DNA from: Paecilomyces variotii
Lineage: Eukaryota
Strand: one strand, 5' to 3'
Assembly (NCBI GenBank): GCA_004022145.1
Contig: RCNU01000001.1
Length of the DNA stretch: 64,000 bases
Position numbers and translations under genes: made by a program. Positions 1 through 48,809 of the stretch are shown piece after piece. The notes under the pieces are model-generated. The model was not told the origin of the DNA and searched no databases. It saw only the letters and a program-made list of their open reading frames with translations. The first letter of the stretch is position 1. Each line of letters begins with the position of its first letter.

Positions 1-19
1 GACAAGATATGTCGGCCAG

Positions 20-828
20 TGCGAGTTCATGACGATGAACTTTGCCATGCAAGCCATCGATCACATCATCAACTCTGCCGCTAAGACTCACTACATGTCT
101 GGTGGTATCCAGCCCTGCAACGTTACTTTCCGTGGACCTAACGGCTTCGCTGCCGGTGTCGCCGCCCAGCACTCCCAGGACTACTCCGCCTGGTATGGTA
201 GCATTCCCGGTCTCAAGGTCCTGGCTCCCTGGAGCGCCGAGGACGCCAAGGGTCTTCTGAAAGCTGCTATTCGGGACCCCAACCCTGTGGTTTTCTTGGA
301 GAATGAGTATGTGCTCAATTAAGTCCCAGATGATCTCGAGTGCTGACCACAGATAGGCTCATGTACGGTCAATCCTTCCCCATGAGCGAGGCTGCTCAGA
401 AGGACGACTTTGTGCTGCCCATCGGCAAGGCCAAGATTGAGCTTCCTGGAAAGGATCTCACTATTGTTTCTCTCTCCCGTTGCGTCGGACTGTCGCTCAA
501 TGCCGCCGCCGAGCTCAAGCAGAAGTACGGAGTCGAGGCTGAAGTCATCAACCTCCGCTCGATCAAGCCCCTCGACGTCGAGACTATTATGAAGTCCTTG
601 AAGAAGACTGGCCGCCTCATGGCCGTCGAATCCGGCTTCCCTATGTACGGTGTTTCATCCGAGATCCTGGCTCTGGCCATGGAGTACGGCTTCGACTACC
701 TGACTGCCCCTGCCGTCCGTGTTACCGGTGCCGATGTCCCCACCCCCTACGCTGCCAAGCTGGAGGAGCTGAGCTTCCCTCAGCAGGATACGGTAGTCGG
801 CCAGGCCGTCAAGCTGCTGCGGTTGTAG
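20..828 (+). CDS. PDB1: Pyruvate dehydrogenase E1 beta subunit, 3' part. Exons 20-306 and 357-828; the 5' exons lie outside the window.
   Basis: Motifs [35 protein letters not shown] and [13 protein letters not shown]. Intron 307-356 (gtatgt..ctgac..tag) joins the two ORFs in frame as ENE/LMYG. Confidence 0.96.
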
Positions 829-970
829 ATGGGAGCGCAGGAGGAGTCAAGATCTATTAATATATTGTCATGTGCCCAGTACCCTTTCATTTTTCACTAG
901 TCAAGCCTGAGGAATTGTACGACTAGAACGTTCTACCAATTTTACATCCCTCACCACTTCTAATGACCGA

Positions 971-1348
971 ATGAGGTTCCCTGTGTTGGTTCACATGTAT
1001 CTGTTCATCAAACATCATGCATGGATTTCCTTCTGCGAGCGACTGGCTGGGTCACATACGATCCGATGTGGCCATTTCCAGACCCCTCCAGTAGCCTGTT
1101 TGATATGACTCCGGCGGGTTGAGGTGTTTCGGGCGTGTCAACCCGCTGCGTTTTCCAATGCATCGACTATTTCCGAGGAGATCGATCAGACATGCTGACT
1201 GGAGCGTATATCGTCCCCTGAAAGCGCTTGGCTCTCAGTGCAGTGGAGCGCTTCTGTGGATCACCGGAGATATCGCTCGTAAGCTCGAATTTGGGGGCTC
1301 AGCGGGTATGTGAAACCCCTTTCCCTATCAATTCCAGTGGTTCCTCAT
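971..1348 (+). ncRNA. Candidate structured RNA of unknown class (independent ncRNA or PDB1 3'-UTR element)
   Basis: At least six nested or adjacent helices read by eye, several with G-U pairs that form only on the + strand. No credible ORF. Confidence 0.45.
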
Positions 1349-1400
1349 GTGCCCGTATCGCCTCCACGCGACTTTGCTCGTCGTATATTCTGTAGTAAAT

Positions 1401-2099
1401 TCATGAAACAGTAACTCCGTTCATACCTGCGCACCCAACTGGACAGTCCGTAGGTCTTCTCGGGTCATAATACTCCTCATCCGTATCACTTTCCGCATCG
1501 ACATCCACTTCCTTCACCTGGGATGACCTGGCACGATCTCGCACATCTGCCGATGTACTTTCATCCTCGTCATCATCAGCCAACACATTTTTCTTCACTG
1601 GAGGCGCCGGAGCAGCCGGTCCCTTGACGGTGGTGAACGAGCTCTTGAATCCCCCCTTCTTAAAGCCACCACCGGTCCCCGTCTTCGTTCCCGCACTTGT
1701 CTCTTTCGTATCGACAACGCGTAATCCAGCTTCCTCGTCTGCCTTCCTTGCATCCTGTTTAGCTCTTTCTGCCGCGTTTGGATCGCGCGAGAGCTGTTTC
1801 AGATCCCGTAGGCGCTTGCGGTGTTGGTGGTCATAGGATCCAATATGTGCTTCGTACTCGGGATGGCGCGAGTAGGACTTATTGCAAAGTGTGCAGGTGA
1901 AGGAACTCAGTGCTGATCGCGCGGAGTCAGTCTGGAAAGGGTTAGCTATCGAGAATGCGCGCGGGAATCCGTTGGGATGGTTGAAAGGTACCTTTGGTGC
2001 TGGGTTCGTGAACCCACGCTGCAACGGTTAGTTTTGTTTCTTCAAGTAGCCTGGTCAAATTTCATGTATTGAGGAGACGGAAAGACTTACAGGAGCCAT
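1401..2099 (-). CDS. C2H2 (U1/matrin-like) zinc-finger protein resembling the GPATCH8/ZNF804 finger. Exons 2099-2091 and 2018-1401.
   Basis: FTCTLCNKSYSRHPEYEAHIGSYDHQHRKRLRDLKQ. A 9-nt first exon (ATG GCT CCT) and intron 2090-2019 (gtaagt..ctaac..cag) give MAP/RGFTNP. Confidence 0.85.
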
Positions 2100-2847
2100 C
2101 GTTGGGGTTCTCTGGTCGATTAACTTGGCAACGCAAGAAGATGAACGCGGGGGCGCAAGTGCGGCCTTTGGAGAGTCGAAAGGCGACTGTTGGAATTATT
2201 GTGGTTATAACTTCAAAATGACAGTATGACGCTTCTGAAATCGATGATTTAATTCATGGAACGACAGTTGTGGCCGATATTAGCGTAATGTATTCCGGGT
2301 AGGAACAGTGTAGAGTACGAAGGTCATGTCTTCGCGATGGCGGCCATCTGCCGAGCGGAAGAGCCCCGGGAGTCGCTCACCGCCTTTAGCTGGCGGGATT
2401 TACTATATCTGAAACCAACGCTCTGGCAGCAGTTGTTCCTACGGGTGAATATTATGGAATATCTTTCTGATATTATACAGAGCCTCGATGCATGTGCTAC
2501 GTAGTATATCAGCTTTCAAGTCTAACGGTCAATAGTGGTTATTGTTATTGTTATTTAGTTGATTGAACTACTGACCGTTTTCCCCGGTTTCTGTGGTGGG
2601 CCAATCATATCTCCGCAGTCACCGCTGACCAATGGAAACCGCGGGAAATCAAGGCCGAGCTTGTTTTACTGGGATTCTGCGAAACTGCTAGGAATTGCAT
2701 GGAAATAGACGCTCAACTCTTTTGCACTCTGTTCTTCACCCGATGGCCGACTGTTATGGGCCCTTCTCATAGTTAATGAGTCTACGTACACTAATATTCC
2801 TTATATGAAGCCTCTGCAATTCCATTGACGAGAGAGACACCCAAACC

Positions 2848-3929
2848 ATGAACAATATGAAGGACGGCGGACCGGATGAAGCCGATGCCCGATCTCTGAT
2901 TTCAATGCAGGAGCTCGATCCATCGCCAGTGGAAGATCAACCCCCAGATCTTGAGTCTGGGGGCTATTTCCCCAAAGATGCGGATGCTGCTACTCCCAAG
3001 CGGGATGGGACGGTGTCCCATTTCTCATTCCCAAAGCTCGGTCTGAGCGGACATCGGTGGGACTACTGGCGTATGGCCTCCATATCCCAGCCAGGTGGAT
3101 TGGACTTGAATTAGCATGATTGTTACTAACCGCTTCAATAGTATCCGCAGTCCAGAGATATTCCACCTATCCGCCGTCTGCCTTCTTCGTTCTTCACATC
3201 GCCAACACCTCCCTCATCCCGCTCGTGACACGTTCCGTACCCGCAAGTGAGAGTTATCTACTTCTCACAAGGCCAATATATCAGTCCATCCCGCTTGAAC
3301 ATATCATGCTCACCGTGCCGATTCTCGCGCACATCGCCAGTGGAGTGACCCTACGGAGTATCCGCGCTCGACGACGCGCGCGCCTCTACGGAGCCGAGAC
3401 GAGGGCACAGAGATCCCTCCTCAAGTCTTGGCCGGTCGTGAGTGTCCAGTCGAGACTGGGATACTTGCTTCTCCCGTTGCTGGGAACACATGTGTTGGTG
3501 AACCGTCTTGTGCCATTGAAAGTGGAGGGCGGAAGCTCGGGTGTCGGACTCGGATACGTCGCCCATGGCTTCGCACGGAGTCCGGTTTTTTGGAGCCTTT
3601 ACTATATCATTTTCGTGGCTGCCGGAGTATGGCATATTGTCGGCGGCTGGGCCGCATGGAGGGGTTGGAGAGTGACAACGGCCCGGAAGAGTCGCGGAGA
3701 AGGACACGTTATCCACGGCGGATATCTGGGATATATGGAGAGCCAGGAACAGCAGAAGCGACGAAGACGGATGTGGTGGATTGTCAATGGAATTGCGGCT
3801 TTAGGCACAGCTCTTTGGCTTGCGGGAGGCTTAGGAGTCGTGGGATACGGCGGGAAGGGCTCCGGCTGGGAGGCGAAGAATTGGGATGAGCTGTATAAAA
3901 ATGTGCCTGTGATTGGGGCCTGGCTATGA
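2848..3929 (+). CDS. MCP1: Mitochondrial outer-membrane Vps13 adaptor Mcp1-like protein (DUF1691). Exons 2848-3070 and 3142-3929.
   Basis: Multi-TM protein with His-containing helices (VLHIANTS, LAHIASG, GTHVLVNR, VWHIVGG) and an N-terminal PxP motif. Intron 3071-3141 (gtatgg..tactaac..tag). Confidence 0.75.
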
Positions 3930-4351
3930 TGAACGACAACGACTGTAAAGTATGTAGAGTACATGATAATTCTAATAATATAACGTATATTTTTGGACAG
4001 TTATACTTCTACAGAATCACTAAAGTTGTTATAGGTTTGTAAGTATCATATAAGTTCAATATGCGTATGATTTATAGATATCAGTCCCCATTCCATGAAC
4101 TACCAGAGAATGCAATTAATGCAGAATGTTAGCTCAGTTTGTCTTTTCATGTACCTATACCGAGTACAATTACTATTTACTCTAGATGTTCGGAGCCTAA
4201 CACAGAAGCCCGCTCATGTGGCCCGTGCACCGAAATTTTACAAAGAAATGATGCTTCCGTCTAGAAACTCCGCAATGCGATCAATTGTAGGTCTGCAGAA
4301 TGCACGGCCTGGCATCCGGTTTATGAGCCTATTTTCTCAAAGCTAGAGCCA

Positions 4352-6730
4352 ATGTTCCTGGCTCCTTCATTTTCATTTTCATTTTCATTTCACCATATAA
4401 AAGCACGATGCGCAATCTGCACGCGACTACCATTTCGATCTAATCGTCTGAACCGCCGAACGATATTCCAAGCGACCAAGAAACAGTTTGCAGAACCTCC
4501 ACTCCTGTCATTTCGATATATCCAGCTACGATCATTTTCCGCAAAAGCCACAGTCATGACGGCTTCTCCCTCTCCAGCGGCAGCGGCGGCTCCGCAGATT
4601 GTTCAGGTCGGGGATAAAGAATATGAAGCTGTTAAGGAGGGGCTGGCCTATATCCTGAACCCGCGTCCGAAAGACGCACCGAAGAAATCACAGAAAGGTC
4701 CCAAGGGAGAGACAACACAGCAGTCGGTGTTCTATAACCCGATTCAGCAATTTAACCGCGATCTGAGCGTGTTGGCGATCAAGGCATACGGTGAACATGT
4801 CTTGGCTGTGAAGAAGGAGAAGCTTGAAAAGAAAAAGCAGAGGATCGCACAAAATGGATTCGCGAAGGGGAAGAAGCGCAAGAGGGGAAATCAGGAGGGG
4901 GATGAGGATGCTGGGAAGGTTGTCCCTGATCAGGTTGATAATGCTGCTGCTACTTCTGAAGCTACTGCCGATCAACCTTCGGAGACTAGTGGTGTTGCTG
5001 TTCCCTCGGAGGAGAAGCCTTTGTCTTTCACGATTCTAGACGCTTTGTCTGCTACGGGTCTCCGTGCGCTGCGTTATGCGAAGGAAATTCCATTTGCGAC
5101 TTGTATCGTCTCAAACGACCTATCGCCTTCCGCTGTCCAGTCGCAGAAGATCAACATCGAATATAACAAGGTGGAGGACAAGGTGAAACCAAACAGCGGC
5201 GATGCATGTGCCTATATGTACAGTCGCAACGGCCCTCACGACTCCGGTGACAGTGGTCGTAAAGGGAGATTTGATGTTATTGATCTGGACCCGTATGGCA
5301 CTGCCGCTCCCTTCATGGATGCTGCAGTACAGGCAGTCAATGACGGAGGTCTCCTGTGTGTGACTTGCACAGATGCTGGAGTTTGGGCCTCGAATGGATA
5401 CCCAGAGAAAGCGTTCGCTCTATACGGTGGTATCACCGTAAAAGGCTCCCATTCGCACGAAGGTGGGCTGCGTCTTATCCTTCACGCGCTTGCCACATCT
5501 GCTGCAAAATACGGACTCGCAATTGAACCGCTGCTATCACTATCAATTGACTTCTATGCCCGAGTATTTGTCCGCGTGTACAAATCTCCCGCAGAGGTCA
5601 AGTTCATCTCAGCCAACACGATGCTGGTCTATAACTGTGACTCCGGTTGTGGTGCTTGGTCCATCCAGCCTCTCAGTCAAACGAAGCAGAAGCCCGATAA
5701 GAAGGGAAATCCTTTCTGGACTTTCGGCTACGCGCAAGGCCCAACAGCAGCGCCGCATTGCGAGCACTGCGGCTTCAAAACTCACCTTGGCGGACCTATG
5801 TGGGGAGGACCTCTTCATAACCCTCATTTCATCCAAAAGATTCTCGACATGCTACCTGGAATTGACAGAGACACTTATCACACCGTCGACCGGATCGAAG
5901 GCATGCTGACGACGGCTCTGGAAGAGGATCTCGACGTGGGTCCCTCCAAGACACCAGGTTCTACTCCTGAACCAGGTCAGGAACAGGACGTTACAGTCAC
6001 TGCTGAACGATCCCCCATCATCCCTCGCATGGATCCAGCTCAACGGGAGCCTCATCCCTTCTTTTTCAGCGTCAGCGCTCTGTCTAAGGTCCTCCACACC
6101 CAAACAATGCCCGTCGACGCCTTCCGCGGTGCTCTCAGACACCTCGGCTACCGTTCAACTCGCAGCCACACCAAACCAAACACCATCCGAACAGACGCTC
6201 CCTGGGACGTTATCTGGGAAATCATGCGCGAATGGGTACGGCAGAAATCCCCCATAAAAGAGGGAGCCCTCAAGCCCGGAACCGCAGGCGCAGCGATTAT
6301 GAAAAAGAGCCGAGAGAACCTCAGAAAGTTTGACGAAACGGACCACCCACTATCCCTACTCAAGCAAGAAATCACAGCCGCGGTGGAAAGTGGCAGAAAC
6401 ATCAACGAGCTCACAACCAAAATCGAAGCTGCGCTCTACCGCTCCGGTGCACGACAGCGACTCGGAAAAGATACCGTTGGAACAGATACAGAGATGAAAG
6501 ATGCCACAGAGCAGGTGTCTCCATCCGAGGAGGAGACTGCTCGCGGATCCAGAGCGGGAAGTCCATCGGCTGCTCAGAGACCACATCCCAGCACGCTGAA
6601 TATCGTATTCGATGAAGCACTAGGAAGAGAAGCCTCCGATGCTCAAACGAAGAAACGACTTGTGAGATATCAGATCAATCCGCGAGAGAACTGGGGTCCG
6701 CTCAGCAGGGCTTCAGGGAGTACGAGGTAG
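4352..6730 (+). CDS. TRM1: tRNA (guanine26-N2,N2)-dimethyltransferase
   Basis: VFYNPIQQFNRDLS, ILDALSATGLRALRY, FDVIDLDPYG, GGLLCVTCTD. Intronless ORF. Confidence 0.96.
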   Translation: MFLAPSFSFSFSFHHIKARCAICTRLPFRSNRLNRRTIFQATKKQFAEPPLLSFRYIQLRSFSAKATVMTASPSPAAAAAPQIVQVGDKEYEAVKEGLAYILNPRPKDAPKKSQKGPKGETTQQSVFYNPIQQFNRDLSVLAIKAYGEHVLAVKKEKLEKKKQRIAQNGFAKGKKRKRGNQEGDEDAGKVVPDQVDNAAATSEATADQPSETSGVAVPSEEKPLSFTILDALSATGLRALRYAKEIPFATCIVSNDLSPSAVQSQKINIEYNKVEDKVKPNSGDACAYMYSRNGPHDSGDSGRKGRFDVIDLDPYGTAAPFMDAAVQAVNDGGLLCVTCTDAGVWASNGYPEKAFALYGGITVKGSHSHEGGLRLILHALATSAAKYGLAIEPLLSLSIDFYARVFVRVYKSPAEVKFISANTMLVYNCDSGCGAWSIQPLSQTKQKPDKKGNPFWTFGYAQGPTAAPHCEHCGFKTHLGGPMWGGPLHNPHFIQKILDMLPGIDRDTYHTVDRIEGMLTTALEEDLDVGPSKTPGSTPEPGQEQDVTVTAERSPIIPRMDPAQREPHPFFFSVSALSKVLHTQTMPVDAFRGALRHLGYRSTRSHTKPNTIRTDAPWDVIWEIMREWVRQKSPIKEGALKPGTAGAAIMKKSRENLRKFDETDHPLSLLKQEITAAVESGRNINELTTKIEAALYRSGARQRLGKDTVGTDTEMKDATEQVSPSEEETARGSRAGSPSAAQRPHPSTLNIVFDEALGREASDAQTKKRLVRYQINPRENWGPLSRASGSTR

Positions 6731-13400: not shown

Positions 13401-16187
13401 GTCGGGGATGAACTGGAGACCACCGTTCAGATCAGCCCAGACAGGGTCCGACTGGCAAAGATCAACGATGGCGGGAGCCATGAGGCCGAGCAAGTTGAAG
13501 GCCATCTCCTGCTGAGAGAAGGTGCGAACTCCGAGCTTCTCGACGCCTTCAGCGACCATGTTGTTTCCACTCATGAGACCAGTGCCGCGGGTCCAGCCGA
13601 TGACAGCACCGCAGATTGTAAGGTAGTTAGCCCAACTCTCAGAGTACCAGCGGTTAAACAGAGTCTCCAAGCCCAACTTTGACTCTGAGTACAGGCCATC
13701 GTTTCCGAAGGTACCGTGGTTGGGGGACAAGGGAAGGATAACCTGAGCTGGACGGGTCTCGAAACCTCTCTCCTGCTTCTGCGTCTTGACGGCACCGAGA
13801 AGTCTAAGGAGGTTGGTCAACATAATTCTGTGAGCAAGTTCCGACTTGGAATCGATGTTGTCAATTTCGCGACCGTTCTCGGGAATGGCCGCGAAGGGGA
13901 CAACGTAGTCCAGATCCCAGCCCAGACCCTTCTTGGTGTCATAGATGTAGTCGACGAGAGCATCCACGTCTTGTTTGCTACCCTGGTTGAAAGGAACGAC
14001 GACAAGTTGGGAACCACGAGCTCCGTAACGGGCATACATGGATTGATAGTACTCAGTGACTTCGCGAGAGAAGCGACTGGTGGTAACGATGACCTTGGCA
14101 CCACCGCTAATAAGTCCCTGGAGAACCTCAGCGCCGATAGAACCAGCTCCAGCACCGGTCATCAAAGCATTCTTGCCCTGGAAAGTGACTCCAGATCTGG
14201 CCGCAGACTCGAGACCGTCCAGGTAGATGCCGGTCAGCTTCTTGTTGTATTCCCAGCCGTGCTCCTCCTTCTTCTTGAGGTGCAAGAAGGGAATGGTCTC
14301 AACCTTTCCGGTGCGAGTGGCACCGTTTCTGGAGCCGTTACGACCGGGTTTCTTCGCCTGGCCATTCTCCTGCGGCATGATCTGGCTCTCGTTCATAGCA
14401 AGAGCACGGACGACATCCTTGTAGAGAGCGTTGAACTGCAACTGGGACGACTTGGAAAGTCTGTGTTGCCTGCGAATGAGCTTGTAGACATTCTTCAGGT
14501 CATTCTGGACCTTTGCCCGATTGCTGTATTCAGAAATCGGACCGCCTTCAGCCATTTGTTTGACGTAGTGTTCAAGCTTCCTAGCGCTAGCCCTAGGTAC
14601 TTCCTGGTACTCGATGTTTCCGCGAGCATCAACAGTCGTGTGGGGTCCGGTAGGGACTGCGACATCCTTGTATACAGGGGCTTGTCCGAGAACCTCCTTG
14701 CAGTTCTCAATGAGCTGCTGACCCAGTTCCTTGGCAAGCTGATAGGTCTCACCGCGTTCCGTCGGGCAGTTATCGATGTGGTACTGCATGAAATCCAGCA
14801 AGAGGGGATTCGATCGGTTCATGATGCGAATACACTGGCTAACAATTTCACGGTCGACGACCTTCAGCCTGCCGAAAATGATGTCGTAGTACATGCTGAG
14901 CGCATCCTGACGAGCCCAGTTCCAGGAAGAATCGTAGACACGAGCCTTCAGAGGGTCGAAAGAGGGCTCAATGCCGGAGGCATAAATATCGCCGTGCTCC
15001 GTCTGCCAAAGATCCAGCTGCGCTTGTAGTGCCTTCTGAGACTCTTGGGACGTGACAAAGGCCTTCTCACCAGCACGCAGATCCATCTTGAGATAGCGCG
15101 CGATGATCTCGAGCTGCTGCTTGAACAGTGCGCGCTGGTCCTTGGTCAGTGCGTCGATCGCAGCAGGGTCCATCATCATGGCGCCAGAACCGGCGCCAGA
15201 GTCGCCGCTGGCGGTTGGTGCAGACAGGCTAATGCCAGCACTGGCCGCATATTTGTTGGCGACACCGTCAAAGTACGCCTTTGCGTCAGCCTCAGCAGCG
15301 AGACGCGATGGGGGCTCCATGGTCAAGGCAAGTAGCAGGACACCGTCTTGTCTACCAGGTCCCAGTCCCCATCTTGTCTCCAAGTATTTCCTGACCGCTG
15401 TGATGTTGAATCCACCAGGCATCTTAGCGGATACCATACGTGCCACCAACGAGGATGACTGCTTGCCCAATTGGCCGTTGAAGGTTGCCTGCATGGCGGC
15501 ACCCAATTCGTCCAGAGGCGTATCCTCTGGCTTTTCCGGCGTCGAGCCAAATTCTTTGCCCAGGTCACCCAGAATTTCATTCTGCAGGGTCGATTTACCT
15601 AGAAAAAGTAAGAGTTCAGTCAGTTTGTGTCCCATAGCATCTGGTTAAAGGGGGATATCAGACTCACCGCCAACCAGATCCTTGATGGCCTTGCTCAATG
15701 GAACATCTGCGATGCTCTTCTTCAATTTCTGTGCAACTAATGTCCTCAGCACATCCACTGCTGTGACTGGCGCGTCTTCGACCTGAGGAGCGGGACCTGC
15801 ACTCGGGGCAGGCGCAGCAGCAGGAGCAGCCGCCGCAGGGGCCGCAGCAGCAGCCGGGGAAGCGCTGGCGGCGGGAGCAGCCTCTGGCTCCGGCTCATCT
15901 TCGACGGGATCGACATCATAGTAGATTTCCTTGGCGTCCTTGTTGTAGCAGAGAATCTGTCGTTGCACTGATGTAGCAGCATCGTAGGCTTCGTACTTGG
16001 AGGCAATCGTCCGTCGTGCCATGCCGCCCAACGTGTCCGCCGGACCGATCTCGACGATACGCTCCGTGCGCTTCTCCGCGAGAATAACATCCTGGGTCTC
16101 AATCCATCTCACTGGAGAAGCAAACTGGTATGCCAGAAGCTCCACCAGCAGGGTGTGAGCCAGCTCCTGCTCGACTTCGGGGCGCAT
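10489..16187 (-). CDS. FAS2: Fatty acid synthase alpha subunit (ACP, KR, KS, PPT). Exons 16187-15668, 15598-10659 and 10599-10489.
   Basis: [64 protein letters not shown] and SISHSD. Introns 15667-15599 and 10658-10600 have canonical ends. Confidence 0.98.
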
Positions 16188-17876
16188 TGTGAAGGTAAGA
16201 AAGAAAGAATACGGGTATCAAGAAAATGTCGGATTAAAGAGCTCAATGGCGGTAAGACGGCCCCAAAGAAGCTCGAAGACCTCTTTCTGCACAGCAACCC
16301 AGGCACCAAGAGGCCCGTCTGGTTACAGTCTTTGAAAAAAAAATCTTTTTGAAGAGGCCGTGAGATCAGAGAGGAGGCCACAATAATGGGCCGATAAGTA
16401 AGCCCGGAGAGGAGGTGGGCAAAGAAGGGGAAAAAAAAGTTGGAGGAGGAAGTGACACAAGTCAAAGGACCATGGCACGATACGCCAGGACCTTAAAGAG
16501 GAAACGAGAGAGGACGAGGACTCTTGACCACGCTCCAAGCCAGCAATTGACCTAGCGAAAATAATACGACCAGGACACCGCAAGAGAAAGACAGAGTGAG
16601 CGAGAGGGCGTGCCTGGAGCCGTTTGGAGTGTTGGGGCAGAATCCAGCGGTGGTTGACGCCGAACCTTGCACGCTGGACGGGCGGTCGCAGTGGGGACGC
16701 TGTTGGTTTTTGGTGGAGTTGGTTTCTGCCGTATCGCGGTTACCGCTTGTAATTTACATTGACTTGACTGTCGTTGGCCCAGCGTATGGTATTCGAGATT
16801 ATTATGGTCCTACGAGTAATCTATCGAGAATAACAATATTATTATTATTGAATAATCCATCCAACTTATCCTATCTGGTACCTAGTTTACCCCATCCCTT
16901 GCCTCCACAACGGGGGACGGAGGAATCAGCAGTCACTGATGAGTGATCAGTATACTGTAACTACCATACATAATTACCTGACCAACATTCAACCCCCCTA
17001 ATATTATTATTATCAACAGTGATGCCTAACTTAAATTTTCCTCTCCTGTCCTCAACCTCTCTGTGCTCCTGCTGCGCCACGTCTCCCTTGATGGGGACAA
17101 GCCTGTTAGTGCCTCCGGCTACTGTCCTACTAGGCTCCTTCCGACTAGCACCTTCGTCTCTGTATCGAATGGAATGTTCGGTCTGGTCAGGCCGCTGTCC
17201 CATCGGGCCGGGGAAACGGCCAGCCGGCGGTCACGTACGGTCACGGTCAATACCGGACGGGCCAGCCCAGCCCAACCGTTTGGACCTTTGGGGAGCTGCC
17301 AGACGGCGCTATGCCCAATCGGAGCTGCCTTTATTCAACCAGCTCGCGATTCATCTTTTCTTCGCCCCAGGGATGGCCCTAATGCGATTCAACAGCATCC
17401 AGTCCGCATCCCCTCGTCCGGTCAGCCAATTTCACGAGTCTGGGTCTGCTAGATAGATAGTTAGACGCTCTTCACTCTTTTGGTCGGGCTCTACAATCCC
17501 TTCCTGCTCGCACTCCTTCCACTCCTCCATCCCTTCTCCGTCCTATATACTCTTGTATTCGTGGTGGAGTGTGCTGGCAGGCATCCCGCCATAGGGCCCG
17601 CAGTCGAGGAAAATTAATTGCTCCAAAGGCGTCTTTCTTCAACTAGGTACGCTGATCAAGTCCCCCAGCTTGGACCTGCATTTCCCACCGTGATTTTTCA
17701 ATCATTGGGAATTGGGAAATATCAGACTTGGTTTATTTATTTTATTTTTTTTCCTATGCAGCTAACAATCGCATTGTAACAGGTGCTCTTTACCCCCACC
17801 CGCCTGCATCTTTTCTTAATTTTTTCTTCCTTTTTCCTTTCTTTTCTCTTTCCAACCAAAATACCCTCTTGAAAAG
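16188..17876. promoter_or_regulatory. Shared divergent promoter and leader region of FAS2/FAS1
   Basis: Head-to-head genes 1.69 kb apart. Central AT-rich island, CT-rich tracts on each sense strand, and a 5'-UTR intron before FAS1. Confidence 0.8.
17647..17782 (+). other. Spliceosomal intron in the FAS1 5' UTR
   Basis: Donor ag|gtacgc at 17647, T-rich tract, branch gctaac at 17761, acceptor aacag| at 17782, about 95 nt before the ATG. Confidence 0.75.
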
Positions 17877-20800
17877 ATGTACGGGACAGCAACGGGCCCT
17901 CAGACGGGCATTAATACTCCCCGCTCGTCGCAATCGCTGCGACCTCTGATTCTCTCGCATGGATCACTCGAATTCTCCTTCCTTGTCCCGACCTCGCTTC
18001 ATTTCCACGCGTCCCAGCTGAAGGACACGTTCACAGCATCATTACCCCAGCCAACGGATGAGCTGGCACTCGATGAGGAGCCTTCGTCCGTGCCGGAGCT
18101 CGTTGCCCGCTATATCGGCCATGTAGCCCACGAAGTCGAGGAGGGCGAAGATGACGCCCAGGGAACCTACGTCGAGATCCTGAAATTGGCCCTCAACGAG
18201 TTTGAGCGAGCGTTCATGCGTGGAAACGATGTGCACGCCGTTGCTGCAAGCCTGCCTGGAATCACGAGCAAGAAGGCCTTGGTGGTCCAGTCATACTACG
18301 CCGGTCGCGCGGCTGCAGGACGTCCCACGAAACCATATGATTCTGCGCTCCTTCGTGCTGCCAGCGAAGACCAGGCTAGAATCTATACCATCTTTGGCGG
18401 ACAGGGCAACATCGAGGAATACTTTGATGAATTGAGAGAAATCTACACCACATACCCCTCCTTCGTTGAGGATCTGATCACCAACGCCGCGGAGCTGCTG
18501 CAGTCTCTGTCCCGCGAACCGGAAGCGATCAAGCTGTACTCCAAGGGCCTTGATATCATCCGATGGCTTCAGGACCGGGATTCGCAGCCGGATACCGATT
18601 ACCTCGTGTCGGCCCCGGTGAGTTTCCCTCTCATCGGTCTTGTGCAATTGGCACACTACACGGTCACCTGTAAAACCCTGGGTAAGGAGCCCGGCGACGT
18701 GTTGGACAGACTCAGCGGTACCACCGGTCATTCCCAGGGTATCATTGCCGCCGCTGCCATTGCGACAGCTACGACATGGGAGTCATTCGCGGAGGCCGCC
18801 AAGAATGCCCTGACGATGCTGTTCTGGATCGGTCTGCGCAGTCAGCAGGCCTATCCTCGCACGTCGCTGGCCCCATCGACGCTGCAGGACTCTATCGAGA
18901 ACGGCGAGGGTACACCCACGCCTATGCTTTCCATTCGGGACCTTTCCCGAAGCGCTGTCCAGGAACATATCGACGCTACGAACCAGCATCTCCCGGCCGA
19001 CAGACACATTGCCATCTCTCTCGTCAACAGTGCTCGTAACTTTGTCGTTACTGGTCCCCCGATTTCCCTCTACGGTCTTAACCTGCGGTTACGCAAGGTT
19101 AAGGCGCCTACTGGACTGGATCAGAACCGTGTGCCGTTTACCCAGCGCAAGGTTCGTTTCTCCAACCGCTTCCTCCCAGTCACCGCTCCGTTCCACAGTC
19201 AGTATGTCACCGCAGCGTTCGACCAGATCATGGAGGATTTGGAGGATGTCAGTATCCCTGCCAAGGCGTTGGAGATCCCGGTCTATGACACGAACACTGG
19301 CGAGGATTTGAGCAAGAAGGGAGACGAGAACATCGTGGCGGCCTTGGTCCGTATGATCACTCAGGAACCAGTGAACTGGGAAAAGGCAACCGATTTCCCG
19401 AATGCTACTCACATTATTGACTTTGGTCCTGGTGGAATCTCCGGAATCGGTGCCCTGACGAACCGCAACAAAGATGGCACGGGTGTCCGCGTCATTATCG
19501 CAGGCTCGATGGACGGGACTAACGCTGAGGTCGGCTACAAGCCTGAGCTCTTCGACCGCGATCAGCACGCCGTCAAGTACGCGGCCAACTGGGTTAAGGA
19601 GCATGGCCCGCGCCTGGTGAAGACTTCTGTCGGCCAGACCTTCGTGGACACGAAGATGAGCAGACTGCTCGGTGTGCCTCCCGTTATGGTTGCGGGTATG
19701 ACACCCACTACGGTTGCGTGGGACTTCGTTGCTGCGACAATGAACGCCGGATACCATATCGAACTTGCAGGAGGCGGTTACTACAACGCCAAGTCGATGA
19801 CTGAAGCTCTCAGCAAGATCGAGAAAGTTATCCCGCCTGGTCGCGGTATCACTGTCAATCTGATCTATGTCAACCCCCGAGCCATGGGGTGGCAGATCCC
19901 CTTGATCGGCAAGCTCAGAGCTGACGGTGTACCCATCGAGGGTCTGACAATCGGTGCTGGTGTTCCTTCCATTGAGGTTGCCAATGAATACATCCAGACA
20001 CTGGGAATCAAGCACATCGCCTTCAAGCCAGGTTCCATGGACGCCATTCAGCAGGTTGTCAACATCGCCAAGGCCAACCCTACTTTCCCTGTCATCCTCC
20101 AGTGGACTGGTGGTCGTGGTGGTGGTCATCATTCTTTTGAGGACTTCCATCAGCCTATTCTCCAGATGTACAGCCGCATTAGAAAGTGCAACAACATTGT
20201 CCTTGTTGCCGGTAGTGGTTTCGGTGGCTCCAATGATACGTACCCGTATCTGACCGGTACATGGTCCTCCCGCTTTGGCTACCCTCCCATGCCCTTCGAC
20301 GGATGCATGTTTGGTAGCCGTATGATGACTGCGAAGGAGGCCCATACTTCCAAGAACGCAAAGAAGGCTATTGCTGACGCCCCCGGTGTTGACGATGGCC
20401 AGTGGGAGAACACGTACAAGGGTCCTACTGGTGGAGTCATCACCGTGCTTTCTGAGATGGGCGAGCCCATTCACAAGCTGGCCACCAGAGGTGTTCTCTT
20501 CTGGCACGAGATGGACCAGAAGATCTTCAGCCTTGACAAGGCTAAGCGCTTGGTTGAGCTGAAGAAGCAGCGGAACTACATCATCAAGAAGTTGAATGAC
20601 GACTTCCAGAAGGTCTGGTTCGGCCGCAACTCTGCCGGAGAGACTGTTGACCTCGAAGACATGACTTACACTGAAGTCGTTCACCGGATGGTTGAGCTCA
20701 TGTACGTGAAGCACGAATCTCGGTGGATTGATGAGTCCCTGAAGCGGTTGACGGGTGACTTCATCCGACGTATCGAAGAACGGTTCACTTCTTCCGAGGG

Positions 20801-24221: not shown

Positions 24222-25072
24222 ACGTGTAGTAATACCCCCGATCTTTTCTATCTTCTTTCGAGCCGTGAGTCTCTGGCGTCTGCTTTTTTTTTGCCGCTTA
24301 GAACTCTGGACTCTTGTCTTCTAGGCATCTTTTTCTCTTTTCTGTGACGTGCCCACGTTCTTCGAGTTTGTTGTTCATAATTCGGTCATAATGAGGGAAA
24401 ATGCTTTATGTAACTAGAAAAAGGGGCCCTATGCCTTTTTTATTTTATGCAGTTAGAATTTATGTTTAGAGGGAATGCTATGGATTATTCAAAATAACTA
24501 GTCAATTTTCTGACGCTAATCTCTTAACTGTAAAGAGAAAAGATTCCGCTACGTGCCGTTTAACCCTCGCTGCTCTTAACTGTTACACTTGCAGCATTCT
24601 ATCATGGGGCTGGGGGATCATATCTGGAAATGCAAGTGTTACTAAGATAACAGCTCTTACTGCAATTCAGACCATTGCAGAAGTCTGTGAGGTCCACCGA
24701 GTCAATAACTTCCATATTTCCTTCCCATAAGGCGATAGAACATCAATGACAGCGTGAGTGTAATTAAATTGATCTTCTAATCCAGTCTATTAGTAGCTTT
24801 GGGTCACACTGGTAGACCAGAATTATGGACATGAGCATAACTTCCTCAAACTAGTCAGCCCAGCTGGGTTGTGCAAAATATGCTCTTCATAAAAAAACTT
24901 GGCCACTTCCCTTTTTTTCCCCCAAATAGGACGTACATACACCGCGCGTAAAGACACAAGAAATATAAAAACCCGGTAGATAAGACTGTCTAAGGAGGAG
25001 GGAGACAATTAAAGATTGGCAGATAATCTTACCTACCTTCCTGACAAGAGAGGGACGTAGGACTGTCGCTGT

Positions 25073-27422
25073 TCAGGTTTCTTTCAGGACACCTGGACGC
25101 AAAAGTCTGTCCTCCTTGCCATATACACCGACTTCTTTGACAATCGAGATGAATCTCCGGTGGTTTTCCCTCGATTCGCCAATGCGAGGTCGGAAAATCC
25201 TGAGCAGGTCACTGCTAAGGATGCCGGTGGCAGGGATGGCAGCGTGGATCTCGGCCGCTGTAGGGAAACTCTGTTGGGACGGACCAGGCGTAGAGACACG
25301 TGTTTGGCCTAGGAAAGATACAAATGGCAATCAGTATGGTCGATCTGATCAAGCGCAGAATCAAGGTTTTACCTTTCATAGAGCCTCCTTCAGGGCTGCT
25401 GGCGCGGCTTGCGACGACGGCTTTACCACCCAGCGGGATAGGACTACCGGCTCGGGATCCTTGGGGCGTTCCATGATGCGAGGGTGCTGTCGGGGGGTTA
25501 AGTTTGAATTTCTTCGTTTTACCGCTTTCACTCATCTCACCAGCTGAGGCAGCACCGCCATCGATATCACTACCAGAACCCGGGCCCAGATTCCGAGCAC
25601 GCTTCTTGTTCAACTATCCAAGTCAGTCAAGAACATATCGTAGTTGCCTTTCGACAGGGCTTACCGGAACTGCGGACGTTGCCGCTGGCGACATTGGACG
25701 CGACTCCGGCTGAGTTGGAGCGTGCTTGCTCTTTGGCTTCTTGCGGGAAGTGTCTGTCCCACTGGCATCGGACAGACCTGGAGAACCAGGGCGTTTCCTA
25801 GCAGGGAGACCAGTCGCTTTTTTCAAGGGGTCAGTATGCTTAGGGCGTCCACTGGGGGTATCTCCGCCTTTCGCAGAGCCCCCTCCATTTTTCTCGGACT
25901 CCTTTGCCTTCTTGTTCTTCTCCTCTTCGGCCTTCCGCTCCTCTTCTTTCAACCGTTCTGCCTCCGAGTCTTCGGAACTCTGCACAATCCATTCAGTCAG
26001 TCACACCGAGCATCAACACGGATAGATAGGGTCGCTGATAACAATGTTACGTACCTCCTCGTCGGAGTAGGGATTGAAATCGGATTCGCTGCTATAATCG
26101 TAATTCTTTTCCCGCCTTTGGAGCGCCTTTCGTACTCGCTTACCCAGAATCCTCCGCGCTTCTTTCTCCCTCTTCTCCTTGAGCTCTTCCTCCTCGTAGT
26201 CCTTTTCTTCTTTGAGGTCAAAGACGTTTGCTTTTAACTGATCTTCCTTGATTCTTTTTTCAGCCGTCTTGGCCTCTTCATCCTCATCGAAAATCGCATC
26301 ATGTTCCTCATCGTCCGCAAATCTGTCTTCTTCGAAATCCATTTCATCTGCTTCTAGAGCCTCGCCACCAGAAGCGCCTTGCTTACCACGGTAGACCTTC
26401 CGTGATTTGGCGTAATTTTCTAGTTCCTTTTGCTGTGCCATCTCATGTTGCTTTTCCATAAACCACCTAGGATCCTTAGTTTTCTTGGACATCAATTTCT
26501 CTGCCTCCTCAATCGTCAAAGTCCTGAACTGGTTCTTTGCGCTAAATTTGTACCACTTGTCGATCGGGATCATCCTCATTCGGCCAGTGTCTTCCAGTAC
26601 GAACATTGCATACGTCTCAGACAGGGCGGCCTCATAACTTCCAACCCACGTGTTTTTGTTATCGAAATCTTCCAAGTGCCAGGGTAGAGCTTCTTCGTAT
26701 TTAACCCGCGCCCGAGCTATTTCTTCCGGTGTCATCTCAGCCCTAGACACCTGTTGAGTCTTCTGTTTGGGAGCATTCGCTCTCCTCTGTACAGTTGCCG
26801 CTGAGGGAGCTATCTGCGCAAGATTCTCCTCGCGCTCCTTTTCTCTTGCAGCCTTTCTTGCTTCGATCTCCTCACGCTCAGCTTCATCGAGCGGATTCGC
26901 CCCTTCTCCCGTCTTCTTGCCATCTGCAGTCTTTTCACCCCCTCCTTCGTGTGTCTTCGCTCGCGGATCTCTCCGCTGGAGTCTGACCGGTCGAGTGAAC
27001 TGAGATTCGTCACGGGGATCGATATTCTTCTTAGACGCGAACTTGGCCACATGGAATTTCAGTCCTTCGCGCCAAGCACGCTTTGTGGTCACTAGGGGAT
27101 AGTCCACATAAGTATCTGAAAGCAGAGGGCCACTAAACCCGTTAACCGCCATGTCCTCCCCGGGAGGGACGACCTTTGTTCTAGGCGCATTCGAACCGGG
27201 TCGCGTATTAGACGGAAGCTGTGCATTTGTCTGTGGATTGATGCCCGCTGAGCCATTTGGCGGCGGCCTAGGAGCCGGCGCAGCGTTCGGTGGCCTTGGA
27301 CCAGGCCTCTTCTTAGGACGCACCAGGGGATCTGCGGCTCTCGGACGACGAATCCTCATTACAGGGGGCCCGTTCGAACCGGCCAAGTTCTGAGGAGCAG
27401 ACGGATTCGTGGGAGTCGCCAT
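25073..27422 (-). CDS. TFG1: Transcription initiation factor TFIIF large (alpha) subunit. Exons 27422-26055, 25979-25665, 25613-25373 and 25308-25073.
   Basis: YEEALPWHLEDFDNKNTWVGSYE, KWYKF..LTIEEAE, acidic central region, C-terminal winged-helix-like segment. Three canonical introns join the ORFs in frame. Confidence 0.92.
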
Positions 27423-43500: not shown

Positions 43501-43930
43501 TCCAGACTCCGGCAGGCGATCCAGGTCGCAGGCCTCCCCATGCTGCAAAAACCGCGTCTTTCCAGGCATACGTCGCCGTGATTATGTCCGGTGTCTGAGG
43601 ACGAGTGAGGAAGACAAGATTGAGTCCACGGCGTAGATCGTAGGTCTGCAACGAGCGTCCCACCGAAGTCGTAATCTGGAATGTCGACTTTCCCAACCGG
43701 ACAGCAGTGAATGGGACATCTGTCGGTGATACCAATCCTAGAGTCTAGATGGAGATCAGTTCGAGGATTCTCTCTGTCCTTATCCACGCACGCTCTGCTT
43801 GACTTACTCTGAAAGGAGAGAAGATCTCAGAACCTGGCCGCCGGATCTTTTTCTGTGCGTCTTCATCCAGAATTCTCTTTTGTCTTTTCGCAGAAGGTCC
43901 ATCGTACCGCTCACCATCGATGGACGGCAT
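40558..43930 (-). CDS. UTP21: U3 snoRNP / SSU processome WD40 protein Utp21. Exons 43930-43808, 43744-42242, 42184-41921, 41864-41226 and 41175-40558.
   Basis: SEIFSPFR/TLG, WD repeats, RSGHSA, FNLQSG, PKAPEKAPFFLPSL, PAKADLEIRSL, DFELVNAWMAVFLKVH. Confidence 0.95.
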
Positions 43931-44911
43931 TATTGCGATTTAAGACGAGAGGAATCCAACAATGCACGATAAAAAAAACAAAACAAAATACCACAAGTAA
44001 GACCGGCAGAAAATAGCCTCTGGCCTTCTTTGGATCGACACGCGAAGGTCAGATCTGCGATGAACGACTGTTGTTATGCTGCATGCGCCGCCTTAACTAT
44101 TTTTTGCGGACAACTTTTTTTCTTCGGCTCTCTCTCTCTCTCTTTTTCCGCCTAACGAATCAGGCAAGCGGGAGAAGCTCTGCAAACAGAGATTATTATT
44201 GAATTCCACCAAGCTCTCGGCTATGCTCGTTCGAGTATCGCTCAGTGATTTTCCCCGGTACAACCTCGCGCTCACTAACTCATCTCAGATCGCTAAAATC
44301 GGATTCTGGGACCTGCGATGATTCCTGCCAATAGGACGAGATCCAGTTCACCGACCCACTGGGACATGATGTTGCGCAATGGAAGAACTCAACCATGAGA
44401 GCCACTGTGGCAATCGGAGGTTGAATTGGCAGAGCAGAAAAGCAGTGGACTGAAGTCTGGAAACCACTTTGATGTTGGTCTCCCTCGTTAGGAGTTCTCA
44501 TGATAAGATCGCCCCAGCAGCGATCTTCCCCAAGGCGTCAGCTGTCTCCCGTCATTACCGCAGTCAGTCTTGGAGTGTTCTATACTGCAGTCCACTGTGC
44601 GTTGTAAGGACTGTAGGTGTGTGTCCAATCTCTCCCTACAGAATTGGCCTTTGACGCAGCAAGTACTGAGCCAAGCGATCCAGCAGGACCCTAAGAAAGG
44701 AAAAGAGCTTCTCCTCCAGACGTCTTGCCAACAACACTGCCAACCTTTCTGAGAACAAGAACGCTGCCAATCTCCAGAGCACCCATTCTAAACCTTCAAC
44801 TGCGATCCGCCATCTTGTTTCTGGTCTCATACATTCTCTCTCTGAGCTGTCCCACGGATAAGCAAGCTTTTTGTGCCTCACGCCGATCGATTGTCTATCG
44901 CAAAGAGTGCG

Positions 44912-47900
44912 ATGGATGACGAAGGGAGTGTATCTCCCTTCTCTCAGAGTCATGGGAATGATTTACAGGATTCGATAACCGCCAGTGATTTTTCGGCCTC
45001 GCGCCCGTCTATATTGGCCCCTCATCACCCCGCCCTGGGATCCCAGGTACCCGGAGGTGATCAGCCTTCCGATGTTTTGGCTACCGCCCGTGCTTCTCGG
45101 CCTGCACGTTCGTCGAGCAGGACACCCAGAAGGCTGAGCGGCAGCACAGCTGCTAGTTCCATCAGCGATATAGACCAGCAAGTTCCAATTATAGGGAAGA
45201 TCGGGGTCTGCGCTCTCGATGTCAAGGCTCGTAGCAAGCCAAGTCAGAACATCCTCACCCGTCTCCAATCGAAAGGGGACTTTGAAGTGATTGTCTTTGG
45301 AGATAAGGTCATTCTTGACGAGGCCGTGGAGAATTGGCCCGTTTGTGACTTCTTGATTGCATTTTTCTCTGATGGATTTCCTTTGGACAAGGCGATTGCC
45401 TATGCGAAACTGCGGAGACCATTCTGCATCAACGATCTGCCTATGCAGAAAGTCTTGTGGGATCGCCGATTATGCCTGAAGATCTTGGATCAGATGGGGG
45501 TTCCGACCCCCAAGAGAATCGAGGTCAATCGTGACGGTGGGCCGACGCTTGAGTCTCCAGAACTTGCTCAGCACGTCTATAGGCTGGCAGGGGTTCGGCT
45601 CGAGGGCCCAGAAGACGGGACAGGAGGCGGGGCTGCGAAATCTCAAGATGTGTCCTTGTCTGAAGATGGAGAAACACTCATTGTTGATGGCAAGACCTTT
45701 CGCAAACCTTTCGTCGAGAAGCCGGTCAGTGGAGAGGACCACAATATTCACATATATTTCCCCAATGATCAGCAATACGGCGGTGGTGGCAGGAGACTGT
45801 TCCGCAAAGTTGGCAATAAAAGTTCTGAATATGACCCCGACCTTGTCGTCCCGAGGTCTATCACGGACAAGACTTCCAGCTATCTTTATGAGCAGTTCTT
45901 GAGGGTCGACAATGCCGAAGATGTCAAGGCTTACACAGTAGGCCCGGACTTTTGCCATGCAGAGACACGCAAGTCCCCTGTTGTGGACGGTCTAGTCCGT
46001 CGGAATACCCATGGCAAGGAATTAAGATACATCACTAAACTCACCAAGGAAGAAGCTGCCATGGCTTCAAAAATCTCCAACGGCTTCGGTCAGCGAATCT
46101 GTGGGTTTGACCTCCTGCGTGTGGGCGAAAGGAGCTACGTTATTGATGTCAACGGATGGAGCTTCGTCAAAGACAACAATGACTACTACGACAAATGCGC
46201 AAAGATACTGAGAGAAATGTTCATAAATGAAAAGCGTAGGCGTGATGGGTTGCTGGAACAAGGGGAACAACCGTCACCTGAGTTTGGCCATGGCCATTCC
46301 AGAAGAAGCACTGCAAGCTCCCACAGAAATACTTTGAAAACTTTGCTCAAATCACCGAGTGTGTCCAGGCTTCATGGGTCTCACCATGGTCACAAACCAC
46401 ATGGAAATATTCCTTCAGATGTCATAGGCGCCCCGGTGTCATCCTCGGTTCATGACAGTAGGGACGTCTCTCAGAATCAAACCCCGAACTACAGTGGAGA
46501 TGATTCCCAAACTTCTCGAGACATACATGACATTACGAATCTGTCGCCCGAGTGTGCTACACCGGAGCCTGAACCCGAGATACCTGCTCCCCCGCCTCCT
46601 GCTTCCAAGCATTCGTGGAAATTGAAGGGAATGGTAGCCGTGATTCGACATGCAGACCGTACGCCGAAGCAAAAGTTCAAGTTTACATTCCATAGCCAAC
46701 CATTTGTTGATCTGCTGAAGGGACATCAAGAGGAGGTCGTCATCAAAGGCGAGGCCGCACTCGCCAGTGTCTCCAAGGCTGTCAGAGTCGCCATGGAACA
46801 AGGACTAGAAGACCCGGATAAGCTGAAGCTGCTTCGGACTTCACTTGAGAGAAAAGGAGGCTGGCCCGGAACCAAAGTCCAGATCAAACCGATGTTCCGT
46901 AAAAGGAAGCCCGAAGAATTGCGTGAGGGTCCTGCCCCAACCGAGCAAAACCACCTTACCGCTCAAACGCCTGAAGAGCCTACCTCACCTGTTTCAGACG
47001 ACAAGAGGGAGAGTAGACTGAATCGCTCGGAATCACGAAGCGATTCTATCTCTGGAACAACGTTCTCCAGGTTCTCTGCTGCAGAGAACGACCTGGTATT
47101 AGACAAATTGCAACTTGTCATCAAATGGGGAGGAGAGCCCACTCATGCAGCTCGCTATCAGGCACAGGATCTAGGCTTGAATATGAGGGACGATCTAAAA
47201 TTAATGAACAAGGAGGCATTGAATGATGTTCGAATTTTCACTAGTTCAGAACGAAGGGTCAGCACCAGCGGTAAGTCCAGTCCCTTAGACTATTTTTTCC
47301 TCTTTTATACTATACATGTGCTGATTTCAAGTAGCTCAAATATGGGCATCTGCATTTCTGGATAGGAAAGAGCTTCCTGAAGATTTTATACAAGTGCGAA
47401 AGGATCTCTTGGATGATTCCAATGCCGCAAAAGATGTCATGGACAGAGTCAAAAAGAAGTTGAAAATACTTCTACGAGAAGGCTCGGCTCCTTCGCAGTT
47501 CACGTGGCCGAAAGAGAATATCCCAGAGCCCTCCGTCGTCCTAGCTACGGTGGTCGAGCTCATGAAGTTCCATCGAAGCGTTATGCGATACAATTTCCGA
47601 AAGATCGATGAATCCGCGCGCTCATTGAACGCGTCCAGAGACGACGAGAGCGCATCAGCATACCAGTCTAAATCTGATAATCCCGCCGTGGCCGCGATTC
47701 AGGGTCGTTGGTGCGCGGGAGAAGACGCGGATCTCTTCAGAGAAAGATGGGAGAAGCTGTTTGCTGAATTCTGTGATACAGAGAAGGTTGACCCTAGTAA
47801 GCTCTCTGAACTATATGACAGCATGAAATTCGACGCTCTGCACAATAGGCAGTTCCTTGAGTGGGTTTTCATGCCTCCGGACAATCTCAGCGGTGAAGAC

Positions 47901-48809
47901 GGCGATGTCTCGCCGAAAGCAAACGAGTCTACAGGCGACCTCAACGGAGACAACAAGTCTGAACGCACGGCTTCGCTGGCTTCTCATGATAGAAGCGAGG
48001 AGAAGTCTGACGGTCATTCCTTTGCGCATCTCATAGGTTTGAGGAAGAGAGCAATGGCGTTAGATTCGATATCCGCCGTTGGGGCTATTGAGGATTCCTA
48101 CGACCACTACTTCAAACTCTATACCGGTTCTGGTGCCACGAGAGCCAAGATGGATGAGCGCTTGTCTAAACTGAGAGAGCTGTACAAGTTGGCAAAGGTG
48201 CTCTTCGACTACGTCACTCCACAGGAGTATGGTATCAAAGATAGCGAGAAGCTCGAGATCGGCCTTCTCACATCCTTGCCTCTCCTTCAGGAAATTGTCA
48301 GGGACTTGGAAGAAGTTCAGGCTTCTCCAGAAGCCAAGTCCTTTTTCTACTTCACGAAGGAGTCGCATATCTACACTCTCCTGAATTGCATTTTGGAAGG
48401 CGGGATACAGACTAAGATCGCAAGGAGTGCGATACCGGAGCTCGACTACCTCTCGCAGATATGTTTCGAACTGTACGAGGCCAAAGATAGCGAGTCTGAG
48501 ACGTATTCGTACTCAATTCGCATCTCGATCAGCCCCGGATGCCACACCTTCGATCCTCTAGATGTGCAGCTTGATTCGAGACACGCAATCGGCTGCGCAC
48601 CGAGAAGGAGTCTGACCGCTCATCAGGATTGGAAAGAAGTTATCGAGACGCTGAAAGCCAAATTCAATACGTAAGGAAATTCGACTCTCCTGCTACGACG
48701 TTTGCTGACTGTTGCCTTCAGTGTAAAACTTCCAAAGACGTTCATCGCCGTGAACTTGAGTGATAAGCATGCGCCCAAACCAGACGAGAAATCAGGCCTT
48801 TCCGGATAA
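44912..48809 (+). CDS. VIP1: Inositol hexakisphosphate / diphosphoinositol-pentakisphosphate kinase (Vip1/Asp1/PPIP5K). Exons 44912-47270, 47335-48670 and 48722-48809.
   Basis: ATP-grasp kinase motifs ([41 protein letters not shown]) plus histidine-phosphatase motif [10 protein letters not shown] and FYFTKESH. Confidence 0.96.

Follow-up and report, generated by a model that had tools for sequence, protein, structure and literature searches.

A predicted multi-branched fold between convergent PDB1 and zinc-finger genes in Paecilomyces variotii: probable 3'-UTR sequence with an incidental hairpin

When a few hundred nucleotides between two genes can be folded into many nested helices, do they represent an RNA gene, a regulatory part of a messenger RNA, or transcribed sequence that happens to fold well? 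This question is raised by positions 971-1348 of a 64,000-nt stretch of contig RCNU01000001.1 (assembly GCA_004022145.1) from Paecilomyces variotii, hereafter called the window. A reading of this DNA made from sequence alone had described the interval as a highly structured element of about 380 nt, and proposed that it is a novel or divergent non-coding RNA (ncRNA) or a cis-acting structure in an extended PDB1 3' UTR. Should it prove genuine, a new structured RNA of this kind, whether ncRNA or UTR element, would be a young fungal feature beside a core metabolic gene. In this study, we analyzed the genes that flank the element, its transcription, the strength of its predicted fold and its fate in relatives. 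We consider it probable (roughly 0.6) that 971-1348 is lineage-specific, transcribed 3'-UTR territory of two convergent genes with an incidental hairpin, and not a gene in its own right.

The element (GC content of 52%) is located in a 572-nt spacer, 829-1400, toward which the stops of the two genes face (Table 1). The fragment of the first gene matches the Pfam domain Transketolase_C (E 3.7e-35), and its top solved relatives are mitochondrial pyruvate dehydrogenase E1 beta chains (E 1.4e-41). Its intron joint, 306/357, is of the GT..AG type and is found in RNA-derived contigs from two public runs, X3 and X15. Window bases 1-19 are the end of the upstream PDB1 intron, and in both sets of contigs the upstream exon is spliced onto base 20. 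The second gene is supported by an RNA contig that extends to 2225 and by CT..AC joints, again in X3 and X15. Its protein has a weak zf-C2H2 match (E 0.0031), which is under the Pfam cut-off, and a search for a solved relative found none.

Table 1. Features at the start of the window
Feature	Positions	Strand	Description
PDB1, 3' part (pyruvate dehydrogenase E1 beta)	20..828	+	Exons 20-306 and 357-825; intron 307-356; stop 826-828
Proximal PDB1 3' UTR	829..970	+	Two short motifs common to relatives; 0 differences from the variant lineage over 829-1066
Reported element	971..1348	+	Predicted fold with several branches, within transcribed sequence that separates the convergent genes; RNA contigs from X3, X14 and X15 span it without an internal joint
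Central domain, 124 nt	1083..1206	+	Long imperfect stem 1086-1112/1177-1204; cap consists of the 1113-1147 hairpin and two mini-hairpins
Zinc-finger gene (small C2H2 protein), convergent	1401..2225	-	Stop 1401-1403; last exon 1404-1931; introns 1932-1991 and 2019-2090

All or part of the spacer was found in 20 of the 24 public runs listed. Six of these runs are recorded as RNA, all of them metatranscriptomes, and 0.69-0.78 of the sampled words of the spacer were present in them. Contigs of four runs (X3, X14, X15 and X17) were aligned to positions 1-3000 at no less than 90% likeness; such contigs are unstranded and carry neither transcript ends nor expression levels. X3 is a culture labelled with the name of the organism, whose RNA nature was guessed, but its contig is spliced. 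X17 retains introns, is thus DNA-like, and served only as a variant sequence. In X3, a single contig of 2,503 nt, from which the intron of PDB1 and the two of the zinc-finger gene have been spliced out, is continuous over 357-1931. The X15 contig joins 20-306 to 357-1461, and the X14 contig spans 561-1590. The whole spacer is therefore represented in RNA-derived contigs from three studies, and none of them has a joint inside 829-1400. Positions beyond 1590 in X14 and 1462-1826 in X15 are uncovered, gaps from which the gene of origin of the RNA cannot be deduced.

Facing stops (826-828 on the plus strand, 1401-1403 on the minus strand) together with RNA that is continuous with spliced exons place the interval among 3' UTRs and convergent spacers. 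We favor 3'-UTR territory because the RNA of the element is continuous with the spliced exons of both PDB1 and the zinc-finger gene and has no internal joint. The transcription of the element would also suit a discrete, lineage-specific ncRNA gene on the plus strand, an explanation that we regard as very unlikely; the RNA contigs pass straight across both ends of the element. A third possibility, unlikely in our estimate, is a cis-acting structure under selection, located in a long 3' UTR of PDB1 or of the zinc-finger gene, which could act on 3'-end choice, mRNA stability or localization, or could limit read-through into the convergent gene. This explanation gains from the continuity of the element with spliced PDB1 exons in the three studies. 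An additional zinc-finger exon within the element was ruled out: the ortholog in a relative (locus L006, below) has the same C-terminus, and the RNA contigs are unspliced below 1931. A hidden small protein gene or pseudogene was also rejected, as the four ORFs of 45-64 amino acids had no Pfam match at E <= 1 and the spacer has no splice joint.

The predicted minimum free energy (MFE) fold of the plus strand (ViennaRNA) has an energy of -147.1 kcal/mol and 134 pairs, 16 of them G-U. The sequence-only reading had listed a closing helix (971-983/1335-1348), an inner long-range helix (1035-1042/1273-1280), helices at 1050-1057/1066-1073 and 1086-1104/1185-1204, and hairpins at 1112-1148, 1222-1253 and 1287-1335. 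All of these occur in the plus-strand MFE fold, and their coordinates are right. It had also argued from the G-U pairs for a plus-strand RNA; numerically the argument is right, but it does not amount to proof of an RNA. Folding z-scores against dinucleotide shuffles, which it had proposed for both strands, were -4.61 for the plus strand (100 shuffles, none equally good; -3.57 with an independent 40 shuffles) and -2.39 for the minus strand. The element thus beats shuffled sequence, and the plus strand is favored, which speaks for both the cis structure and the ncRNA gene.

Where in the element does this signal reside? Five self-contained pieces were folded alone; the closing and inner long-range helices need the whole element. 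The central domain, 1083-1206, had a z-score of -5.61 on the plus strand and -3.27 on the minus strand. The others scored -2.24 (1046-1077), -1.67 (1218-1258), -1.10 (1283-1340) and +0.46 (971-1034). Almost all of the fold signal of 971-1348 comes from the central domain, the sole part clearly beyond shuffles. The apparent 380-nt architecture is one strong, imperfect hairpin of 124 nt whose tip is branched, accompanied by helices none of which is better than chance on its own. The helices of the proposed element are there; its signal is concentrated and does not extend over the 380 nt.

According to the pair list of the predicted fold, the central hairpin has about 27 pairs with bulges, and a three-way junction forms its branched apex. 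An imperfect hairpin of about 120 nt within transcribed sequence, known here from contigs and a predicted fold, is a feature shared with the hairpin-derived (milRNA-like) small-RNA loci that are described for fungi in the available part of one source (PMC9757828). The domain might accordingly be taken as a candidate precursor of such small RNAs. We find this highly improbable, since the apex is branched and not a simple loop, and since a covariance model of the hairpin revealed no conservation across 26 loci from relatives.

The strength of the fold was then set against the rest of the window by a scan for local folds over the whole 64 kb, on both strands, with a span of 400 and a support vector machine (SVM) z-score. 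The local fold at 1020-1406, which covers most of the element, had a z-score of -4.86. The window contains 22 distinct loci with z <= -4.5 (10 on the plus and 12 on the minus strand), and 10 of them exceed -4.86. Among local folds of at least 300 nt, 1020-1406 ranks first, a point in favor of an ncRNA gene, although narrowly (-4.86 versus -4.82 and -4.77). Several competitors are internal to ORFs: 20107-20489 and 20417-20650 (in an ORF of 1,971 codons), 48263-48609, and 14157-14414 on the minus strand, with dinucleotide z-scores of -4.2 to -4.6. Another, 24942-25248, is partly in an ORF and has a dinucleotide z-score of -5.15. The fold of the element therefore belongs to the tail of the ordinary sequence of the window and is only marginally above background. 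Because the best-looking spot in 64 kb was picked, a fold of such strength would be expected somewhere. That 22 loci reach z <= -4.5, some of them in long ORFs, is one reason to read the hairpin as incidental.

Further local folds with SVM z-scores of -4.5 to -5.4 were present at 43859-44069, 44886-44977 and 52897-53032 on the plus strand and at 56460-56528 and 16820-17019 on the minus strand. In the same range, 13843-13917 and 48177-48609 fold on both strands, which indicates palindromic DNA. Some of the other strong local folds lie outside long ORFs, 43859-44069 being an example.

A more general caution follows from these counts. In this window, about one fold per 6 kb of strand (22 loci in 128 kb), with coding sequence included, is 4-5 standard deviations beyond shuffles and strand-biased. 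Before such a fold is named an RNA gene, evidence from conservation or end-mapping is required.

Known RNA families were searched with the 4,227 models of Rfam 15. At E <= 1 over positions 1-6000, there was no match within 971-1348. At E <= 10 with the laxest filters, 829-1420 gave four matches with E-values of 3.2-9.3 and scores of 14.8-16.6 bits, as compared with gathering scores of 44-60. The initial statement that the element lacks signatures of small nuclear and nucleolar RNAs, SRP RNA, RNase P/MRP and the TPP riboswitch was thus borne out by the database search that had been called for, which yielded nothing at gathering score. A tRNA- or SINE-like origin was ruled out, as ARAGORN reported 0 tRNAs. 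The lack of any Rfam, tRNA or Pfam match is a further ground for the 3'-UTR assignment.

A run of five or more T residues is a mark of Pol III termination. Neither end of the element carries such a run, whichever strand is read, which by this rule argues against a Pol III-type terminator and, like the lack of an Rfam family, against an ncRNA gene. The nuclear structured RNAs (RNase P, RNase MRP, SRP and U3) resemble the element in their length of about 300-400 nt and in a multi-branched fold; the element differs from them in having no Rfam match, no conservation in relatives and no terminator-like T-run. A scan for promoters and terminators of the bacterial type gave counts similar to those of shuffles and is inapplicable to a fungus. 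No paper describing a structured element of a PDB1 3' UTR came up in a literature search.

For comparison with relatives, we used 28 loci, obtained by a metagenome scan, that contain the last exon of PDB1. The order PDB1, reversed zinc-finger gene and next gene is retained in only one of them, L006, whose PDB1 is 83% identical and whose zinc-finger ortholog is 59% identical with the same C-terminal end. The spacer of L006 is 265 nt long, 307 nt shorter than that of P. variotii, and the alignable part is only about 866-897. The element, for which conservation in the syntenic interval had been named as a check, is absent from this sole syntenic relative. In L002-L005, which have the highest PDB1 identity (92%), no zinc-finger gene occurs within 3 kb downstream, although the less similar L006 keeps the gene order; the break in synteny is immediately past the PDB1 3' UTR. 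PDB1 of another relative, L001, is 89% identical.

Smith-Waterman comparison of 929-1400 with L001, L002, L005 and L006 on both strands gave scores of 15-25, and the maxima of 30 shuffles were 21-26; the best case, the plus strand of L002, scored 25 against a shuffle best of 24. In L001, L002 and L005, no sequence could be aligned with 929-1400. A covariance model of 1083-1206 matched only the domain itself and its reverse strand in a search of the window and 26 loci (172,408 bases), from which L003 and L004 had been omitted because they have the same match statistics as L002. An analogous fold was sought downstream of PDB1 in 15 of the 28 loci (16 were picked, of which L008 proved too short). 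In this local-fold scan, nothing comparable was present at the corresponding position in the closest relatives, L001, L002 (equal to L005), L006 and L007. At 405-527 nt beyond the stop, L002/L005 have a hairpin of 123-129 nt on both strands (z-scores of -3.7 and -3.5), and one of 49-70 nt at 1110-1179 (z-score of -4.5). The distant loci L018 and L014 have local folds with z-scores of -4.4 to -4.6, located 420-770 nt past the stop. No fold of the scanned relatives fits the covariance model of 1083-1206.

The absence of the element from the syntenic relative and from the 26 loci supports its assignment to lineage-specific 3'-UTR territory. It weighs against an ncRNA gene, for which there is neither a structural homolog in the 26 loci nor covariation. 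It likewise weighs against a selected cis structure: the syntenic spacer of L006 holds nothing comparable, nor do L001, L002/L005 and L007 at the corresponding position, L002/L005 having only the 123-129-nt hairpin further along. The proposal of a novel or divergent ncRNA thus finds nothing beyond the fold in its favor, as there is no homolog and no compensation, and similar z-scores occur in nearby coding sequence.

Two short motifs in the proximal PDB1 3' UTR are common to relatives. The first, TCATGTGCCCAGTACCC (868-884), also occurs in L006 and L002, and the second, GAATTGTACGACTAGA (912-927), in L002 and L001. The first has the form TCATGTGCC(C/T)AGTACCC and is found at 3501-3528 of L006 and 3537-3553 of L002; the second has the form GA(A/G)ATTGTACGACTAG and is found at about 3612-3627 of L002 and 1394-1408 of L001. 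In these relatives, the 3' flanks are otherwise unalignable. The second motif contains UGUA-N4-UA, which we take to resemble a Puf-protein site.

The 307 nt by which the spacer exceeds that of L006 raise the possibility that the element originated as a foldback or MITE-like insertion relic or as a local inverted duplication. Such an origin would not conflict with the 3'-UTR assignment, as it concerns only how the sequence arose. Relics of this kind resemble the element in their nested inverted repeats, short terminal inverted repeat (here ATGAGG...CCTCAT) and extra length relative to a syntenic relative, and the central domain folds on the minus strand too, i.e., it is palindromic as DNA. We nevertheless consider such an origin rather improbable. 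The terminal positions match at only 11 of 14, the GC content is not that of an AT-rich relic, and no target-site duplication is found at 971/1348 (flanks ...ccga and gtgc...) or at 1083/1206, so the combination of terminal inverted repeats with a duplication that defines MITEs and foldback elements is missing. No second copy exists in the 64-kb window, and in the four runs only contigs that run unbroken through the element were seen; as far as can be seen from these sources, the element is single-copy.

The exact 10-nt direct repeat TCATGTGCCC, at 868-877 and 1345-1354, was ruled out as a target-site duplication, as the ancestral conserved motif at 912-927 lies between its copies. At its 3' end, the closing helix overlaps with the second copy, and the repeat is probably due to chance or a small duplication.

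Selection on the structure was assessed with a close variant lineage (contigs of X14, X15 and X17), which has nine substitutions in 829-1400. The totals of 16 and 10 differences in the X14 and X15 contigs are wholly explained by the listed rows. Within the element there are six substitutions, at 1067, 1111, 1172, 1173, 1178 and 1237. Three of them affect paired positions and all three are disruptive (A1056-U1067 becomes A.C, and C1111-G1178 becomes G.A), with none compensatory in this one variant with six changes. Both partners of pair 1111/1178 changed, an event with a chance of 2.8% in random draws; the outcome is G.A. In the variant, 1111 may re-pair with 1149, the change at 1173 adds a pair to a mini-hairpin, and the cost to the central domain is only 3.1 kcal/mol. 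Over the element as a whole, the energy change of +7.1 kcal/mol compares with a mean of +6.0 (sd 4.7) over 300 random sets with the same substitution types, of which 59% were no worse. We see no sign that substitutions spare the structure, in a test that is weak with six changes.

This result is a second reason to view the hairpin as incidental. It also argues against a selected cis structure, as does the finding that the best-folded part bears four of the six changes. Of the original alternative of a cis-acting structure in an extended PDB1 3' UTR, one half holds, in that spliced PDB1 contigs traverse the element; a sign of selection on structure did not emerge. As to the covariation asked about at the outset, no compensatory change was seen among the three at paired sites, with low power from one syntenic relative and one close variant.

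The level of divergence gives a different picture. In the last exon of the zinc-finger gene (1404-1931), 10 of 12 substitutions fall at third positions, which serve here as near-neutral sites, i.e., 10/176 (5.7%) with the codon frame set by hand. The element differs at 6/378 positions (1.6%; Fisher p 0.012), a value that speaks for a selected cis structure, and the whole spacer at 9/572 (1.6%; p 0.005). The low values are unevenly distributed: 829-1066 has 0/238 differences (p 0.012 versus 1067-1400), and 1067-1400 has 9/334, which is not significantly under third positions (p 0.14). Within the element, the central domain has 4/124 substitutions and the rest 2/254 (p 0.09). Low divergence of the spacer fits some function, but could also reflect ordinary UTR constraint near a conserved gene, or mosaic ancestry with a step near 1067.

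The points against an incidental hairpin are the strong z-score of the central domain, the preference for the plus strand, the first rank among folds of at least 300 nt, the low divergence and the change of both partners of pair 1111/1178. Alternatively, 1083-1206 with its flanking helices might be a young, lineage-specific, functional RNA domain of the plus strand, either a cis element of a long PDB1 3' UTR or a Dicer substrate from which small RNAs are made, which seems to us improbable. If it were true, a PDB1 cis element would set 3'-end choice or block read-through into the zinc-finger gene, and the spacer divergence of 1.6%, versus 5.7% at third positions, would reflect selection on the domain.

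If, as we prefer, 971-1348 is 3'-UTR territory with an incidental hairpin, its RNA would come from either gene or from both, as distal 3' UTR or as read-through. PDB1 transcripts that pass proximal 3'-end signals, the zinc-finger 3' UTR, or both, would carry the element. In such RNA the hairpin could form as a by-product of local inverted repetition, and would not be a selected architecture; the weaker helices around 1083-1206 may make the stretch resemble a structured RNA of 380 nt. Such an arrangement has a counterpart in filamentous fungi. In Neurospora, according to the accessible part of one study (PMC3951366), convergent pairs that overlap at their 3' ends form the most prevalent class of sense/antisense arrangement. 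The present locus is similar to such cis natural antisense pairs in that the genes are tail to tail, 572 nt apart, and joined by an RNA contig over the entire spacer; it differs in that overlap is deduced from an unstranded contig, by which neither transcript is proven to reach the other.

Additional differences from the variant lineage were observed around the spacer. Positions 1-1066 have one change in coding sequence and a cluster of seven changes at 313-326 in the PDB1 intron. Third positions of PDB1 have 1 change in about 250, far below the 10/176 of the zinc-finger gene (p 0.0007). Divergence steps up near 1067 and is about 2-6% thereafter, for which mosaic ancestry or strong constraint may be responsible; 43 further differences apparently fall past 2245, judged by table order, and would again correspond to about 5.7%. 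An in-frame insertion of 3 nt at 1553 (TGT on the plus strand) also distinguishes the variant lineage; it falls where the zinc-finger gene encodes its acidic C-terminal portion.
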